Assembly: GCA_031283585.1 (NCBI GenBank)
Contig: JAITBP010000013.1
Span: 1-32,000, forward strand
DNA from: Puniceicoccales bacterium
GTDB lineage: Bacteria; Verrucomicrobiota; Verrucomicrobiia; Opitutales; LL51
Reading direction: 5' to 3'
Length of the DNA: 32,000 bases
Shown: in pieces, positions 9,627 through 18,637 of the stretch
How the letters are laid out: every line of letters starts with the position of its first letter
Numbering within the stretch: position 1 is the first letter of the stretch
Made by a program: the position numbers and the translations under genes
Notes under the pieces: model-generated
What the model was told of the DNA's origin: nothing
Database searches by the model: none
What the model saw: the letters and a program-made list of their open reading frames with translations, nothing else

Positions 9627-11489
9627 TTATTCGGTCTTTTCTGCTTCTGCGTTTTTTATCTCGTTCCTTTTCTTTCGATAGTCATCCAGGTCTTTACCAT
9701 GTAGAGCAAAGAACATTTTCATGGCATTTTCTGATGGTATAATGGTTTCAATTCCCTGATCACGTAATTCTTTTATGCGTAATAAGGTATATCTGTGAAA
9801 GTATTTACCCACTTGCCCCTGTTTTTTTATCGTTTTTTGATTCTCTAAATCATTTTTGAAATTATCGACAAAATTTTTAATTTTTTTAATTTTCTTGTCT
9901 GTCATGGTGGCATCTTTTATACAATGATTAGGGTTGTTCACAGCATAGACTGCTCTGAATGGATAGTCATTGTAAACATCGTAGTCAAAGTCACTTAGAC
10001 GGTTTACGAATATGATGGTTTCACGTGATTCATTTTTGGCAGTTGCCAATCCCAGGACCTGGGCCATTTCGGCAGAGCTACCAAAAATATAATTATAACA
10101 CATCGTATTTAATATATCGCGACAATCGTAGGGATTTTTGTTGATAAAGATATTTATGTCCTCGGTACTGAGATTACTTTCAGCCCAAATGTTCTTGCAC
10201 CAATAACATAGTGATTTGGAGCTATTGTTCGATGTTTTTAGACTCGATATGACATTGAGCATGTCATCACCTACGAAATTATCCACTATTGGGAACATAT
10301 TTTTTAAAAATGTTGATGATTTTAACCCATGAAAACATTTTCTTAATTTATCTATATGTTTAGCGTAGGATTTTCCGCAAAAAGATTGTATTAAATACAC
10401 ATACCAAGCATGGCCGAATTCGTGTGGCATGGCACTGAAGTAACTTGTAAATGGCGATAGTCCCAGAAAAATATTTAGCTGCGAGTTATCAGAAAATTCC
10501 GGATATGTTAACATCCGATCACAGTAAATATCCGAGTGGTTTAAATTAATATCGGTCTTAGACTTGGTTACAAGGGCCGATGGATTATCGCTAAAAATAA
10601 AGTTAAGTTTATAATTTTCATCTAGCTCCGATCTCAACTTATTTATGGCTAAAAATGTTACAAAATGCTGCCTCAGAACGTCGTTATTTTTTATTCTGTC
10701 CGAATTGATTTCCTCCATCATCTGTTTGATGCATTTTATTCTAATCGAATATTTATTGGGATTGGATTTGTCTTCTTTACTAAATGTTACAGTGCCTTCG
10801 GTGGTTTTTAGGATACTGTCCGGTATGCCTGAATAGTCTTTCGAGCTTTTTGAGCTTTTTGAGTCTTTTGCCACGGATGGTGCCTGGTATTCTTGTTGAT
10901 CTAACGCACTATCATCTTTTGCCTTACCAGGTTCTGGTTTGTACTTATTTTTGTTAGCTTCTTTCTCTTCAAGTTTTTTGAGCAATTCTTCGGTATTTAA
11001 AAAAAACATTTGTAATTCATGGGTCCAGGCCTGGTTATTGGCGTCTGTTGCGAGGGCTTTGTAATACTCCACACGACCTTTTCCAAGTTCTTCATTAAAA
11101 GCATTGAGCACTGATTCATAGTCTATTATTCTGACATTATATTCATTAAGACCAAAGCTGTTTGGCAAATTGCTTATTTGATTTATTTCTTCGGTGTTTA
11201 ATTTTCTGGAAACTTTCATTAATGAATTATATTCAAATTTTTTGTAAACCTGTAGATAGCTTTTGAGATAGTCTAAATATTTATCAGAATCCGTGTTTGT
11301 CTTACTTAGTTCACTGATCTTTTTAAGGTTGCTTTTGGCGAACTCCAGTGATTTTTTATAAAACTCTGGGTCATTCAATCCCGGTGGCTGTGGTATGATG
11401 TCATAGGCAGTAATTTTTGGTACATTAATGACGCAGCCAAATACACTAGCGGCTATTAAAATTGTGGTTTTGATTATACCTGTTTTCAT
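9627..11489 (-). CDS. Exported (signal peptide, possible lipoprotein) protein with an HEXXH zincin motif; otherwise uncharacterised
   Basis: N-terminus MKTGIIKTTILIAASVFGCVINV is a signal peptide with a borderline lipobox (VFGC). There is a single HEFGH motif (SAMPHEFGHAWYVYL), a low-complexity KDSKSSKSSKD linker and several Cys pairs in the C-terminal half. I recognise no other family motif. Confidence 0.5.
   Translation of the reverse strand: MKTGIIKTTILIAASVFGCVINVPKITAYDIIPQPPGLNDPEFYKKSLEFAKSNLKKISELSKTNTDSDKYLDYLKSYLQVYKKFEYNSLMKVSRKLNTEEINQISNLPNSFGLNEYNVRIIDYESVLNAFNEELGKGRVEYYKALATDANNQAWTHELQMFFLNTEELLKKLEEKEANKNKYKPEPGKAKDDSALDQQEYQAPSVAKDSKSSKSSKDYSGIPDSILKTTEGTVTFSKEDKSNPNKYSIRIKCIKQMMEEINSDRIKNNDVLRQHFVTFLAINKLRSELDENYKLNFIFSDNPSALVTKSKTDINLNHSDIYCDRMLTYPEFSDNSQLNIFLGLSPFTSYFSAMPHEFGHAWYVYLIQSFCGKSYAKHIDKLRKCFHGLKSSTFLKNMFPIVDNFVGDDMLNVISSLKTSNNSSKSLCYWCKNIWAESNLSTEDINIFINKNPYDCRDILNTMCYNYIFGSSAEMAQVLGLATAKNESRETIIFVNRLSDFDYDVYNDYPFRAVYAVNNPNHCIKDATMTDKKIKKIKNFVDNFKNDLENQKTIKKQGQVGKYFHRYTLLRIKELRDQGIETIIPSENAMKMFFALHGKDLDDYRKKRNEIKNAEAEKTE
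10843..10869. repeat. 9-bp tandem repeat x3 (gagcttttt gagcttttt gagtctttt) inside the HEXXH gene
   Basis: Read directly from the sequence. It is in frame and encodes KDSKSSKSSK on the minus strand. Confidence 0.8.
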
Positions 11490-14669: not shown

Positions 14670-15953
14670 ATGTACCTAGAACGAAATATAACCGGAGCGT
14701 CTATATGTTCCTTTTTGGCCAAAATATCGTCAACATTGCCAATGCTAGTGGCTATACCGTTGGCTATAAGCATATATGGCCCCAGGTTGGCTGGATCTTG
14801 GATTACGATCAATTCCCTGGGTGTATTTTTATCATTTTGCTGCCAATCCGGCAATCGGAGTTTGACCGTTGAGATCAATAAATATGTAAATTCCATCGAT
14901 AATTTATCGGTAAAAAAAAGCATATCGTCCTGCTATTTTTTAGCATTGATTCTGGGTATTATCCAGGCGCTTATCCTGTTATTTGTTAATAACATGCTGG
15001 ACTATGAGCTGATATTTGGGTTAACAAAATTAGAATTATCCGAGCTGCGGTACCTGTCGATTTTGCTGATTTTTTACTATGCTTTTCTGCCATTTTTATC
15101 CATTGGAAGCGATGTGAGGCTTGCGGTAAACGAGAGCCATCTGGCAAGCACTTGGCAAATCTTTGGAAACCTAATCAATATTTTCGGCATATGGCTGATG
15201 GCCTCACCTGGTTCGCGGATGATATTTTTTGTGATGGCAACATTCGCAGGCACATGCATTGCTCATTTACTTAACAATTTTTTCCTTTTTAGAAAACGAC
15301 ATGGAATTTCCCCCACCATCAGGCATGTCTCATTAAATTCGATAAAAACACTGCTGGGTTCAGGTTTTTGTTATTTTTACCTGGCAACGGTTGCGATGCT
15401 GAACACCTGCTCTAACAATGTGATAATTACCTGGGCAATTGGAGTTGATCAGGTGATTTGGTATGAAATTGGGTTTAGATTGTTTACCATGGCGATGTTT
15501 ATGAGTTATGTGTTTCAACCGCTATGGTCAGTTATCGATGGCGCAATAGGCTGTGATGAGTACACAGCGTTGAGAAAAATGTTCTTCGCCGGTGTGGTAA
15601 AAACGTTGTTGGCAAGCATTGGCTTTGCTGTTTTATTAATTATGTTTGGCAATGATATCATCGCTCTATGGGCTGGTAAACAAGTTCATATGGAAAGGGT
15701 TATGTTCATTGCCTTTGGAATTTGGTATGTGTCCACAAACGTTTCCATGTTTGTTGGCGCATTTCTTGAACATGAAAAATCGATCAAATTTGTAATGATT
15801 ACAATTTCCATAACAACGCTGGTTTCTCTGGTAGCGAAAACCCTAGCCTGTGCCTATTGTGGTTTGGCGCCGATGATAGCCATCGGTGGAATAACGCAGC
15901 TGGTGTTCTGCCTTATTCCATATTGTATCTATCTTTGGCGCAAATTGTTATAG
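14670..15953 (+). CDS. MOP-superfamily oligosaccharide/polysaccharide flippase (Wzx-like)
   Basis: 427 aa with roughly 12 hydrophobic segments and a Wzx/RfbX-like layout. It lacks the MurJ-type N-terminal R..FG.G..DAF motif. Confidence 0.6.
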   Translation: MYLERNITGASICSFLAKISSTLPMLVAIPLAISIYGPRLAGSWITINSLGVFLSFCCQSGNRSLTVEINKYVNSIDNLSVKKSISSCYFLALILGIIQALILLFVNNMLDYELIFGLTKLELSELRYLSILLIFYYAFLPFLSIGSDVRLAVNESHLASTWQIFGNLINIFGIWLMASPGSRMIFFVMATFAGTCIAHLLNNFFLFRKRHGISPTIRHVSLNSIKTLLGSGFCYFYLATVAMLNTCSNNVIITWAIGVDQVIWYEIGFRLFTMAMFMSYVFQPLWSVIDGAIGCDEYTALRKMFFAGVVKTLLASIGFAVLLIMFGNDIIALWAGKQVHMERVMFIAFGIWYVSTNVSMFVGAFLEHEKSIKFVMITISITTLVSLVAKTLACAYCGLAPMIAIGGITQLVFCLIPYCIYLWRKLL

Positions 15954-15964
15954 CTACGATAGAT

Positions 15965-16996
15965 TCATTTTGTGCCTAAATGGACATTATGCAGATTAAT
16001 ATGTTGAATATTCGGTGGTATAAGTCTGAGTGGTTTATCTTTTTTCTCCCAATTGAACCATATGTCGAAAACTTCGATGCCAATGGCTGACAATGCTTCC
16101 TTTATATTTCGTAACATTACAGGGTTGTCATCTATGGCTATGACTGTGGAACAAACATCAGATAGATTCTCAACTTTTTGTACCGTAGCTGAAAATTTTA
16201 GAAACGAAATTATGACGTCACCTTTCCTTTCTCCCTGGAGGAGAAGAAAATTATCTATTAATTTCATCCGATCAGGTTGTATGAAGTTTGAAAAAATTAT
16301 GCCACCCTGAAATACAGGAACAGCTAATATTTCTGTTATTATTTTTTCAGGTGTTTCATGGAACATACGATAATCATTGGATGAGCTTTTTAAAACAAGA
16401 AGCCTTGAACCATCCTCTAGATCAAAATTATTACTAGTACCAAGGTAATTAATATCAATGTTATCTAAAATAAATGGCAACGCAATAAATGGCCCCTCGG
16501 TACTATTGCTGTTTCCAAAGGGATCCCAAAAATTTGTCTCAAGTCGATTCATGGCATCACATCTGATGGTTGCCAATGAATGTTCTAAATTAGTTCCACA
16601 TCTTATAGGCGAAATGACGGTTTTATATTTGCCGGTGGGGTTTATAGGTTCTATGCTTAGGAAATGATCAGTGGCCGAGGTCAATCCAACGGCCCTAAAG
16701 GGACATTCCATTAGATAATTAATAAACTCTTGGCTAACAGGTATCGCATTATTACTAGGACCAACTTCAGTACATTTGGTGCTATTACCATTCAAGTAAT
16801 CGCTGGAGCTACGTATGATGGTATTATCTATGTCCACGAACATTATGGTATTGAGAGGATCCGCCTGGCCTGTGGAATATAACTCATTTAGCATGTCTAC
16901 TAATTTCTGTCCACTGCGTACCTCAATTGGATCGCCTGAACAAATAACCGCTTGCATAACAAGCAAAACCACACATATATAATTTTTAAGTAACAT
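15965..16996 (-). CDS. Secreted HAD-superfamily-like hydrolase (paralog 1, catalytic motifs intact)
   Basis: Signal peptide MLLKNYICVVLLVMQAVICSG. HAD motif I is IMFVDIDNTII (DxDxT), motif II AVGLTSAT, motif III Lys in ERKGDVI, and motif IV VIAIDDNPVM. There is a ~170-aa insertion between motifs II and III (a C2-cap position). Confidence 0.6.
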   Translation of the reverse strand: MLLKNYICVVLLVMQAVICSGDPIEVRSGQKLVDMLNELYSTGQADPLNTIMFVDIDNTIIRSSSDYLNGNSTKCTEVGPSNNAIPVSQEFINYLMECPFRAVGLTSATDHFLSIEPINPTGKYKTVISPIRCGTNLEHSLATIRCDAMNRLETNFWDPFGNSNSTEGPFIALPFILDNIDINYLGTSNNFDLEDGSRLLVLKSSSNDYRMFHETPEKIITEILAVPVFQGGIIFSNFIQPDRMKLIDNFLLLQGERKGDVIISFLKFSATVQKVENLSDVCSTVIAIDDNPVMLRNIKEALSAIGIEVFDIWFNWEKKDKPLRLIPPNIQHINLHNVHLGTK

Positions 16997-17100
16997 AAAT
17001 TGTGATGTCTAACATGTTTTAAAAAAGAATCAACCAGAATTTATTGCTAAAATAATATACGAAAAATAGGCACAACCAATGCCCAGGGAATATTTTTGAA

Positions 17101-18258
17101 TTATTGGATTGCCAAATTTCTCCAGTTAAACAATATCAACCAGATATCGATATTCTCAATTCCAGGAGTGTTCCTTAATATTGTCTCAGCATTTTTTAGT
17201 TGGCGAATGTCATCATCAACAATAATAATACGCCTATAGATATTTTTGACATCATTAATATCACAGCTGGGTGTTAATGCTTTCAAAAATGAAACAATGA
17301 CATCTCCCTTTCTGTACTCATCAGGATAATCTGTAGATTCGCCAGAATCATATAATTTCCTTCTCAAATGGGAGCGTCGTACAAAATTTGAGAAAATTAT
17401 TCCGTCTCTAAACACAGGCGTAGCTGATATTTCTCTGACTGTGCCATCAGGATCTTTTTCAATAAACCATGAACTCTGATTTAGCTGGTTATATGATTTT
17501 TGCTTAAAATATTGGACTTGCTTTGCTGACATATCATTCGGTTTTGTTGTCGGACATAACATTTTCTTTGAAAGTATTTCATCAACTTCATCGACTTCAT
17601 CGACTGAAAATATGGTTTTACCTGAACCTAATTTAAAGGTTTTATGACTATATTTTTCATAATTTTCTGTATGTTCATCAAGGTAATCATACACGAATGG
17701 TAAAATTGTATCTTCTTTTATTGTATCTTCTTTTAATTTTAATAATGGCGAAAATTTTATGCCCAACTTTTCCATTGCTTTACATCTAATTTTAGAAAAT
17801 GAAAGATTTGTTTCGCTCTTACATTGTGAAATACGCATTTCATATATTGCTTCTTCAGGGTTTTTATGACCTATTTCCTTAAAGCTAATGGTATACAAAG
17901 TAGGTGATGTAAACCCAACGATTTTTGTAGAATTTTCGCCATTGGGGTTTTTAGTTATTTCTTTCAGATAATCAATCAGCTCACGGCTAATTGGTTCAAT
18001 ATTTTTCTGTGCTATAAATGCATCTTCATTTTCTGCAGTGGATTTAGAAATACCACTGATATCACTACCATTTTCTATGATAGTATCACCTATACCAATA
18101 ATAATAATTGTTTTTTCGCTTATATCACTAGTCAACATTGATAATTTATCAATCAATTCCTGAGCGTTATTTGCATGGATTATGGGCTTGACATCTCCAA
18201 AACAAAAAACCACCTGTGAAATCAGCACAGCAATACACGAAATCTTTTTATGTAACAT
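17101..18258 (-). CDS. Secreted HAD-like paralog 2 with degenerate motif I (predicted pseudoenzyme)
   Basis: Signal peptide MLHKKISCIAVLISQVVFCFG. It shares blocks with paralog 1: PVFRDGIIFSNF, RKGDVIVSFLK, IIIVDDDIRQLKNAETIL and IDIWLILFNWRN. Motif I reads IIIIGIGDTII, so both Asp positions are Gly. Confidence 0.6.
   Translation of the reverse strand: MLHKKISCIAVLISQVVFCFGDVKPIIHANNAQELIDKLSMLTSDISEKTIIIIGIGDTIIENGSDISGISKSTAENEDAFIAQKNIEPISRELIDYLKEITKNPNGENSTKIVGFTSPTLYTISFKEIGHKNPEEAIYEMRISQCKSETNLSFSKIRCKAMEKLGIKFSPLLKLKEDTIKEDTILPFVYDYLDEHTENYEKYSHKTFKLGSGKTIFSVDEVDEVDEILSKKMLCPTTKPNDMSAKQVQYFKQKSYNQLNQSSWFIEKDPDGTVREISATPVFRDGIIFSNFVRRSHLRRKLYDSGESTDYPDEYRKGDVIVSFLKALTPSCDINDVKNIYRRIIIVDDDIRQLKNAETILRNTPGIENIDIWLILFNWRNLAIQ
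17582..17608. repeat. 9-bp tandem repeat, about 2.7 copies (tcaacttca tcgacttca tcgactgaa), in paralog 2
   Basis: Read directly from the sequence. It encodes VDEVDEVDE on the minus strand. Confidence 0.75.
17705..17734. repeat. Perfect 15-bp tandem duplication (attgtatcttctttt x2) in paralog 2
   Basis: Read directly from the sequence. It encodes KEDTIKEDTI on the minus strand. Confidence 0.85.
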
Positions 18259-18328: not shown

Positions 18329-18637
18329 CTACAGCAACTCTTTTAATTTAGTTCCTGGCTTAAATTTTACGCTTTTCGATGCTTTTATGATTATTTTTGC
18401 ACCGGTTCTTGGGTTAACACCATTTCGCTTATCGCGCTTTGTGACACTGAAAGTGCCAAAGCCTACGACCTGCACACTGCCATCTTTTTTGATACCATTT
18501 GTTATTGCATCCAAAACCACGTTCACTGTATGTTCTGCAGATGCTTTTGTAACCTTATGATCAGATGAGCACATCCCATTACAATCACATTTATTTAATA
18601 GATTATACGTTTCATTTATTAATTCAGACTTATTCAT
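18329..18637 (-). CDS. hup: HU/IHF-family DNA-binding protein with a Cys-rich insertion
   Basis: MNKSELIN..., VQVVGFGTFSVTKRDKRNGVNPRTGAKIIIKASKSVKFKPGTKLKELL is a canonical HU beta-arm and C-terminus. About 11 extra residues (KCDCNGMCSSDH) lie between helices 1 and 2. Confidence 0.9.
   Translation of the reverse strand: MNKSELINETYNLLNKCDCNGMCSSDHKVTKASAEHTVNVVLDAITNGIKKDGSVQVVGFGTFSVTKRDKRNGVNPRTGAKIIIKASKSVKFKPGTKLKELL

Follow-up and report, generated by a model that had tools for sequence, protein, structure and literature searches.

DUF2608 (Pfam PF11019) is a branch of the haloacid dehalogenase (HAD) superfamily for which, to our knowledge, neither a function nor a solved structure has been reported and which Pfam lists in the HAD clan CL0137. 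Here, we describe a tandem pair of genes, par1 and par2, whose products appear to be divergent relatives of this branch. The pair lies in a stretch of 32,000 nucleotides (hereafter the window) comprising positions 1-32,000 of contig JAITBP010000013.1 in assembly GCA_031283585.1, from a Puniceicoccales bacterium (Verrucomicrobiota). Both products are predicted to be exported; par1 carries the complete set of HAD catalytic motifs, whereas par2 has lost both motif I aspartates and looks like a maintained pseudoenzyme.

Canonical DUF2608 proteins share with this pair an N-terminal signal-like segment and a series of blocks (hhhDxDxTLI; LT(S/A)A; R..(A/R)(M/L)..LGI.F; P.F..G(I/V)IF(S/T)N; KG..L..FL; hhhhDD; GI.F.G), the clade of par1 and par2 being set apart by a shorter segment after motif I and by three insertions (of about 35, about 60-120, and about 17 residues). 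HAD caps are highly variable, and many phosphatase families include dead paralogs: mitochondrial Tim50 has an FCP1-like domain without the catalytic Asp residues, and myotubularins are paired with catalytically dead myotubularin-related proteins. Such pairs resemble par1 and par2 in the loss of the catalytic nucleophile, the retention of the fold and the rest of the pocket, and the presence of a dead copy beside an active paralog. They differ in being eukaryotic, with documented binding of substrates or partner enzymes, whereas par1 and par2 are a bacterial tandem duplication with signal-peptide-like N-termini.

Two further groups invite comparison. The first consists of secreted HAD effectors. 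Lem4 and Ceg4 of Legionella are type IV secretion substrates without Sec signals. Together with SerB653 of Porphyromonas and MbovP0725 of Mycoplasma, they are secreted HAD phosphatases that act on host phosphoproteins (PMC11019793). Common to these effectors (e.g. Lem4, PDB 6cgk) and our pair are a HAD core with DxDxT and export, the core and the export being predicted for par1 and par2 and DxDxT being kept in par1. However, sequence searches against PDB chains detected no homology beyond the superfamily motifs, the structural match to Lem4 is insignificant (E 0.23), and the insert differs; for par1 and par2, delivery to a host would be conjecture. The second group comprises the class B and C acid phosphatases (AphA; e(P4)-type lipoproteins; Acid_phosphat_B, HAD-IIIB), extracytoplasmic HAD phosphatases with Sec signals to which the pair bears a weak resemblance in fold and sequence. 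The differences are a motif IV of IDDN in par1 and VDDD in par2 instead of GDxxxD, the lack of a canonical lipobox, and a large beta-rich insert that the class B and C enzymes do not have.

The paralogous pair and its catalytic motifs

The two genes are co-directional, with par2 upstream and par1 following after a spacer of 104 bp:

17101-18258, minus strand: par2, a 385-amino-acid (aa) DUF2608/HAD-like protein, predicted to be exported and catalytically dead (open reading frame [ORF], paralogy, family hidden Markov model [HMM] E 2.4e-76)
15965-16996, minus strand: par1, a 343-aa DUF2608/HAD-like protein, predicted to be exported and to be an active phosphohydrolase (ORF, family HMM E 1.5e-79)

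A preliminary description of this DNA had read these adjacent genes of 343 and 385 aa as exported HAD-like paralogs, one complete in all four HAD motifs and the other with both motif I aspartates replaced by Gly and motifs II-IV kept, and had quoted four collinear blocks shared by their products. Both ORFs and all four blocks are present, and the proteins are paralogs that BLASTP aligns over about 390 columns at 29% identity (E 4e-27). The motifs are placed as follows:

16814-16840, minus strand: par1 motif I, FVDIDNTII, residues 53-61, with nucleophile D55, acid/base D57, and T59 (codons GAC ATA GAT for the Asp-Ile-Asp)
16673-16690, minus strand: par1 motif II, VGLTSA, residues 103-108, with T106, at the end of predicted strand 101-106
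16124-16231, minus strand: par1 motifs III and IV, with K258 in ERKGDVIISFLK at the start of helix 258-272 and D289/D290 in VIAIDDN at the end of strand 284-289
18076-18102, minus strand: par2 degenerate motif I, IIGIGDTII, residues 53-61, with the nucleophile Asp and Asp+2 both Gly (GGT ATA GGT)
17209-17316, minus strand: par2 motifs III and IV, kept, with YRKGDVIVSFLK at 17281-17316 (YRKGD, K317) and IIIVDDD at 17209-17229 (D348/D349)

All the motif strings previously named for par1 (FVDIDNT, GLTSA, the Lys of RKGD, and IDDN) were thus located, motif III reading ERKGD (256-260) and motif IV VIAIDDN (285-291), and D55 stands at the end of strand 50-55 as predicted by AlphaFold. In par2, motif II is kept as VGFTSP (T117), motifs II, III, and IV follow one another in order as they do in par1, and alignments and codons alike bear out the double replacement in motif I. 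The preliminary description had also allowed for a different, intact DxDxT in par2. The sole such string, DPDGT at residues 269-273, was rejected as a relocated motif I: it lies in the insert, at a non-homologous and unconserved position with no preceding hydrophobic strand, and par2 has no alternative intact motif I.

The family was collected with an exhaustive HMMER search of a 4-sequence profile against 1.84 billion representative proteins, which returned 37 clusters at E <= 1e-3. All retrievable homologs were aligned to the family HMM, and motif I, covered by 33 sequences, has the nucleophile Asp in 32 of them (par1 and all 31 other homologs); par2 is the sole exception. An alignment of 24 sequences shows no variation at T106, K258, G259, or D289 and a conservation of at least 90% at D290. 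One might nonetheless suppose that the family is not primarily one of phosphatases, the HAD-like scaffold serving as a binding module or for another chemistry, in which case ‘enzyme plus pseudoenzyme’ would overstate the difference between par1 and par2. That DUF2608 is without known activity fits this idea, as do a Gly at Asp+2 in two relatives (P0013 and P0010), a Thr-to-Val change in P0013 and P0027, and further family-invariant residues outside the four HAD motifs whose roles are not known (S65/D66, R145, P227, G232, and N237). We regard it as very unlikely, however, since catalysis is the best explanation for the conservation of exactly the HAD catalytic set, with the nucleophile in 32 of 33 sequences.

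Outside motif I, par2 is little altered. Among the 22 other aligned members of the family, 25 columns reach a conservation of at least 80%; par1 agrees with all 25 and par2 with 21, its four misses being the two Asp-to-Gly replacements plus conservative changes of L to F and I to V. Because its ORF is intact and, with 21 of 25 conserved positions kept, only the chemistry has been removed, par2 looks like a maintained pseudoenzyme, decay being less likely; the sequence combines the three marks of a pseudoenzyme, namely loss of catalytic residues, an intact ORF, and retention of the other conserved residues.

Relationship to DUF2608, with predicted structure and export

Among 24 family members, 19-20 match Pfam DUF2608 (best E 1.2e-13), most of them only over the C-terminal third of the model (about 142-218 of 244 positions); par2, P0002, P0004, and P0010 have no such match. 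The gathering threshold of 22.6 bits is exceeded by most relatives (P0011 at 51.5 and P0006 at 41.4 bits) and reached by neither par1 nor par2. Yet hhalign aligns the family profile with P0037, a canonical full-length protein (Pfam DUF2608 E 1.7e-32), at 98.6% (E 5e-16) over 194 columns running from before motif I to the last strand. Because the scores are below threshold while profile-profile homology is this strong, par1 and par2 are best regarded as divergent relatives of DUF2608 rather than as members by Pfam's definition.

The connection with HAD proteins at large was followed in two ways. P0037 itself matches positions 1-166 of the 178 in HAD_2 (E 4.5e-4, 20.8 bits vs a cut-off of 23.8) and matches Hydrolase at E 0.018, also below the gathering score. 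In addition, core-only constructs were made by excising the insert in silico (par1 residues 24-109 joined to 254-318, and equivalent columns in the others), and the most recurrent NCBIfam matches of these constructs, to nine models, were all HAD (HAD-IIIC, IIIA, IA-v3, IB, FkbH, MDP-1, and FCP1 among the names). Their alignments start at motif I and bring the Lys-to-DD region into register, all below curated cut-offs; TIGR01681 (HAD-IIIC) was matched by 5 of 24 constructs, at best with 21 bits (E 4.5e-4), where the cut-off is 35.75. Together with the model of par1 described below, these profile alignments and in-register matches favour the HAD-like core that had been proposed for both proteins.

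More distant comparisons were less productive. Searches of par1, the family profile, and the core-only profile against the sequences of all PDB chains gave nothing significant (best E 0.12-1): only motif I found counterparts, in trehalose phosphatase and in a class C acid phosphatase (3pct, E 1.1). With hhalign, the core-only profile scored 11.8% against AphA and 2% against GmhB of Escherichia coli, single-sequence templates that are weak for this purpose; motif I was correctly aligned, and in the case of AphA it was motif I alone. Class B and C enzymes are defined by a bipartite DDDD signature with GDxxxD and by a family model; here that signature is absent and Acid_phosphat_B was matched by 1 of 24 members, at E 0.14. 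A tblastn search of AphA against phage records for a class B profile yielded only four near-identical enterobacterial copies. No paper on DUF2608 was found in the literature, where matches to ‘PF11019’ are Plasmodium gene identifiers.

An AlphaFold model of par1 built from 24 sequences (predicted local distance difference test [pLDDT] 84.3, predicted template-modelling [pTM] score 0.83) consists of alternating strand-helix units in which D55, T106, K258, and D289/D290 stand, as expected, at the end of a strand or the start of a helix. A first model, from 4 sequences (pLDDT 68), had given only meaningless Foldseek matches against PDB. For the later model, the best structural matches are non-bacterial and belong to uncharacterized proteins of giant viruses of amoebae: in BFVD, Foldseek returned, each with probability 1.00, Tupanvirus A0A6N1NU56 (E 7.5e-7), the Yasminevirus ‘putative secreted protein’ A0A5K0UB50 (E 2.6e-6), and Pithovirus LCDPAC01 A0A481YN40 (E 4.9e-4). 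An Aeromonas-phage ‘acid phosphatase’ was matched at E 1.3e-3 (probability 1.00, target-normalized TM 0.54). Weak matches in PDB were to AphA (2aut_D, E 0.077) and to the HAD domain of Lem4 (E 0.23, 290 columns, target-normalized TM 0.40).

Between motifs II and III lies the insert:

16232-16672, minus strand: par1 insert region, residues about 109-255, family-specific and predicted to be beta-rich, with the IRCDAM helix, the LPF block, and the PVFQGGIIFSNF block

The preliminary description had seen here one very large insert at the C2-cap position. The position between motifs II and III is correct; a single classical C2 cap is not what the alignments indicate, as there are at least three insertions, mostly upstream of GIIFSNF. 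Relative to canonical DUF2608 (hhalign), the clade has its shorter segment after motif I; the first insertion follows motif II directly and is predicted to form a beta-hairpin (residues 111-130). The second, predicted to be beta-rich, falls between IR..AM..LGI.F/LP and PVF..GIIFSNF and is shorter in par1 (about 60-70 residues) than in par2 (about 120), and the third separates the GIIFSNF block from the motif III Lys. The caps had also been called almost entirely different between the paralogs, which holds for only about 50-100 residues from LPF to EI that cannot be aligned; the blocks IRCxAM, LPF, and EIxAxPVFxxGIIFSNF are conserved in both paralogs and across the family.

Export was assessed by a hydropathy heuristic (best 12-residue mean), with maxima of 3.01 for par1 and 2.58 for par2:

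18196-18258, minus strand: par2 signal-peptide-like segment MLHKKISCIAVLISQVVFCFG (hydropathy heuristic 2.58)

Both N-termini have one to three basic residues, a hydrophobic stretch of about 14 residues, and then C-x-G|D (MLLK, NYICVVLLVMQAVI, and CSG|D in par1; MLHKK, ISCIAVLISQVVF, and CFG|D in par2), with the common pattern M-L-x-K-...-C-...-Q-x-V-x-C-x-G-D. Most full-length family members begin with a similar hydrophobic segment, and both proteins are inferred to cross the inner membrane by Sec export. Read by eye against the consensus [LVI][ASTVI][GAS]C, neither protein has a lipobox, Cys19 being preceded by Ile in par1 (AVIC) and by Phe in par2 (VVFC). P0004 (L002, 9959-10003) probably starts 13 codons upstream of its deposited start: from the ATG located there, the protein gains MFYNIIIYILVYS and thereby a signal-peptide-like N-terminus (MFYNIIIYILVYSMWFGVSAYA) ending in AYA. 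Longer alternative gene calls also exist for P0012, P0017, and P0023.

Distribution, locus, and rate of evolution

Every named match of the family search is a ‘MAG: Puniceicoccales bacterium’ (MAG, metagenome-assembled genome), and the family appears to be a divergent clade of the DUF2608 branch so far found in Puniceicoccales alone. Word-indexed searches found little more than P0001, a 98%-identical par1 from a Logan assembly, and P0002 and P0004, at 30-32% identity, from Puniceicoccales MAGs. Flagellates in the guts of lower termites are known to have verrucomicrobial symbionts. At least one of the relatives comes from the MAG Gsp477_bin142; the isolate label ‘Gsp477’ denotes a metagenome from the gut of the lower termite Glyptotermes, and the paper that gives this label names Verrucomicrobiae as putative endosymbionts of the flagellates of termite guts (PMC11707648).

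Tandem pairs are common in the family (P0013/P0010 on contig L006, at a different locus, and P0017/P0032 and P0020/P0036, with adjacent accession numbers and contigs), and some MAGs have at least three copies. On this account duplication is, as far as the sequences go, a habit of the family, the dead copy being the unique feature of the pair in the window. The P0013/P0010 pair (L006, 6756-7820 and 8001-8939, plus strand) is located upstream of an amine-oxidase-like gene, trkH, tilS, and ftsH; both proteins have Asp-Ile-Gly in motif I, with Asp+2 lost, and P0013 also has Val for Thr. They cluster together in a neighbour-joining tree with 82% bootstrap support. The same MAG also has a third, intact copy (P0014), and L005 has a single intact copy at the equivalent locus. 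In the tree, the clade of the locus described here receives 96% bootstrap support, with 35% for par1 and par2 as sisters and 42% for a basal par2. A Cys pair is present in both window paralogs (C133/C146 in par1, C146/C159 in par2) and absent from P0002 and P0004, and because this pair and the signal-peptide pattern are shared, there is a hint of lineage-specific duplication.

The genes of the window and of related MAGs follow a common order: gatB, tatD, bacA, an aminotransferase gene, mraZ, and mraW, then dnaJ, grpE, the gene of an HU-family protein, a HAD-like gene, a tetratricopeptide repeat (TPR) gene, glmM, and a family-4 glycosyltransferase gene. Because the related MAGs have a single intact copy at the same HU-to-glmM position, the locus is, by its gene order, ancestral and no acquired island; in L002, for example, one intact copy (motif I FVDIDDT) stands between the HU and TPR genes. 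Two features adjoin the paralogs directly:

18329-18637, minus strand: HU-family gene, 70 bp upstream of par2 and co-directional (Pfam Bac_DNA_binding, E 1e-25)
17067-17085, minus strand: terminator-like hairpin and T-run in the spacer between par2 and par1 (consensus scan alone)

In related MAGs as well, the locus is bounded on its left by the HU gene. Given the hairpin, found in a consensus scan of the region that gave 3 sites against 1.6 expected, par2 and par1 may be transcribed separately.

Within this conserved block, the pair changes fast, as had been suspected: the HAD-like proteins are 27-37% identical to their orthologs in L001 and L002, whereas flanking genes are at 60-87%. A second comparison, with the near-identical strain contig L003 (11,301 bp, collinear, without indels, covering part of par2), gave 21 single-nucleotide polymorphisms (SNPs). 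The two paralogs, with 1,629 bp or 14% of the sequence compared, account for 13 of them (binomial P = 7.5e-7), and the remaining 9.7 kb or so for 8. In the paralogs, 11 of the 13 are nonsynonymous; the covered fragment of par2 has four, three of them nonsynonymous (E221K, N369D, and L374P), and those of par1 form a hot spot:

16063-16191, minus strand: par1 SNP hot spot, 9 SNPs in 129 bp, 8 nonsynonymous (S269L, T271M, V275I, D280G, S283C, K299E, E308K, and I312V)

The pair is thus, on these identities and counts, the fastest-evolving part of an otherwise conserved syntenic block, and strong purifying selection on the segments concerned is ruled out by the SNP counts. Strain differences are concentrated in the C-terminal, Rossmann-like half of both paralogs (16063-16191 and 17138-17154), in the helix after motif III and in the last strand. 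Either recombination that brought in a diverged allele or diversifying selection acting locally could account for this clustering. As the source of the par1 SNP cluster, gene conversion within the pair was rejected: of the first five variant residues, only two agree with par2, and identity between the paralogs is only about 30%. Between par1 and par2 themselves, at 29-35% protein identity, synonymous sites are saturated.

The composition of par2 stands out as well. Its G+C content is 0.319 (0.254 at third codon positions), compared with 0.367 in par1, 0.402 in the window, and 0.423 in gatB; the preliminary description had set about 32% for par2 against about 47% for gatB, a contrast that is right in direction, although the latter figure was a local spot count and does not hold for the whole gene. 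Horizontal acquisition was rejected as the cause, as the locus is syntenic in related MAGs and another gene of the window, at 9627-11489, is also G+C-poor and fast-evolving. The in-frame micro-duplications that had been noticed in par2 were confirmed with Tandem Repeats Finder (TRF):

17705-17735, minus strand: par2 15-bp tandem duplication in the insert (TRF, 2.1 copies, 100% matches), in-frame KEDTI KEDTI
17578-17605, minus strand: par2 9-bp repeat in the insert (TRF, 3.1 copies), in-frame VDE VDE VDE, holding the inter-strain SNP 17598 (E221K)

Could par2, then, be a duplicate on its way to loss, a functionless gene in which the catalytic aspartates went first? The lowest G+C content in the window, recent slippage repeats, the lack of a Pfam match and of an ortholog in our searches, and the predominance of nonsynonymous changes among its SNPs (including L374P, in the last core strand) are all compatible with such a course. 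We nevertheless think it improbable. With such a G+C content, a frame of 385 codons free of constraint would soon close (by our own estimate, about 7.6% stops per random codon), whereas that of par2 is intact at a paralog identity of about 30-35%; the signal-peptide-like segment is kept; the two catalytic aspartates are the sole non-conservative losses among the 25 conserved positions; and the nonsynonymous excess is equal or stronger in par1 and is therefore not specific to a dying gene.

A different objection concerns par1, which might be a housekeeping, non-specific periplasmic acid phosphatase or nucleotidase of the AphA or e(P4) type that dephosphorylates nutrients for their import without any host role, par2 being a by-product of duplication. 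The N-termini resemble Sec signals, with no sign of a dedicated effector secretion signal; the locus is chromosomal, syntenic in three related genomes, and situated beside the housekeeping and envelope genes for HU, glmM, and the family-4 glycosyltransferase; and a weak likeness to class B and C enzymes recurs (AphA at E 0.077, the phage ‘acid phosphatase’ at E 1.3e-3, Acid_phosphat_B at E 0.14 in one member, and 3pct at E 1.1). Motif IV, however, is hhhDDN instead of the class B/C GDxxxD, and a conserved housekeeping enzyme would not be expected to show 27-37% identity where its neighbours show 60-87%, to hold 13 of 21 inter-strain SNPs, mostly nonsynonymous, or to occur in at least three copies per genome with tandem pairs. 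We accordingly judge this explanation rather unlikely, although it is the most serious of the competing ones.

Several other genes of the block deserve mention. The HU protein has 102 aa, compared with 90 positions in the Pfam model, and a Cys-rich stretch near its N-terminus (KCDCNGMCSSDH); its orthologs in L001 and L002 are of equal length and 74% identical. Between par1 and the TPR gene, the window has a plus-strand ORF (14670-15953) for an apparently multi-pass hydrophobic protein of 427 aa, with no Pfam match even at E <= 1. It is also found in L003 and is absent at the same position in L002, where about 460 bp with a 34-aa ORF are found. The minus-strand ORF at 9627-11489 (620 aa, G+C 0.347) has no Pfam match and 26% identity to its positional counterpart in L002, where the neighbouring gene is kinase-like; it is a second fast-evolving gene without annotated function in the same conserved block.

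Proposed function and significance

The explanation that best accommodates the whole, and that we consider on balance probable, is that par1 is an exported HAD phosphohydrolase and par2 a retained dead paralog, with an external target; the reading as exported HAD-like paralogs, one catalytically complete and one without the motif I aspartates, withstood all the analyses run. We suggest that par1 would be a Mg2+-dependent phosphomonoesterase with the canonical HAD mechanism, in which D55 would attack the phosphoryl group to form an aspartyl-phosphate intermediate, D57 would act as general acid/base, T106 and K258 would hold the phosphate, and D289 and D290 would bind Mg2+. The family-specific beta-rich insert between motifs II and III may set the choice of substrate. 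As for par2, it should be unable to form the phospho-aspartyl intermediate and may be kept under selection as a non-catalytic module (for ligand binding, as a decoy, or as a partner of par1) in which the fold and the rest of the pocket are retained. The target may lie outside the bacterium, as a molecule derived from a host or partner, and not among the bacterium's own conserved metabolites; we suggest this because the genes occur in several copies, are confined to one lineage, diverge rapidly, and show an excess of nonsynonymous differences between strains. Of all the steps in the proposal, this one is the weakest: fast nonsynonymous change and copy-number dynamics favour an external interface only modestly, and a host-directed role is conjecture.

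A number of observations weigh against this proposal. At the level of profiles, par1 reaches only E 2.8e-4 and 20.9 bits against DUF2608 (gathering score 22.6), par2 has no Pfam match at all, all direct matches to HAD models are below curated thresholds, and Foldseek of the whole par1 model against PDB returned no match at E <= 0.001. DUF2608 has no member with demonstrated activity, and Asp+2 is Gly in both P0013 and P0010, so that catalysis may not be the property for which the family is selected. The Gly-Ile-Gly of par2 is known from one assembly, as the related contig L003 begins downstream of those codons, and no second par2-like sequence was found in two scans of Joint Genome Institute (JGI) metagenome contigs (with a 4-sequence alignment and with par2 alone), an exact look-up, or a word-indexed search. 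The signal peptides are predicted by a hydropathy heuristic, and the products may end up in the periplasm, at the surface, or secreted; the SNP counts are small, with a ratio of nonsynonymous to synonymous rates (dN/dS) of about 2 that is not significantly above 1.

A bolder speculation, to which we attach little probability, is that the DUF2608-like proteins of Puniceicoccales from lower-termite guts would be exported effectors, specific to their lineage and rapidly diversifying, of symbionts that live in association with protists. The active members would remove phosphate from phosphorylated host targets, and the catalytically crippled ones (par2 and P0013/P0010) would trap substrates or act as decoys. 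The family would have its fold and part of its insert in common with the ‘putative secreted’ proteins of Tupanvirus, Yasminevirus, and Pithovirus, which would point to a shared toolkit for life inside protists.

The locus represents a divergent variant inside a known superfamily and changes no general concept; its structural relatives in giant viruses are one new angle. Given its multiple copies and its unusually rapid, largely nonsynonymous change, the family is a reasonable candidate for an interface protein between symbiont and host or symbiont and environment. Should par1 be active and par2 a dead copy that is maintained, the two would constitute a compact natural enzyme/pseudoenzyme pair with which to find the substrate of DUF2608.

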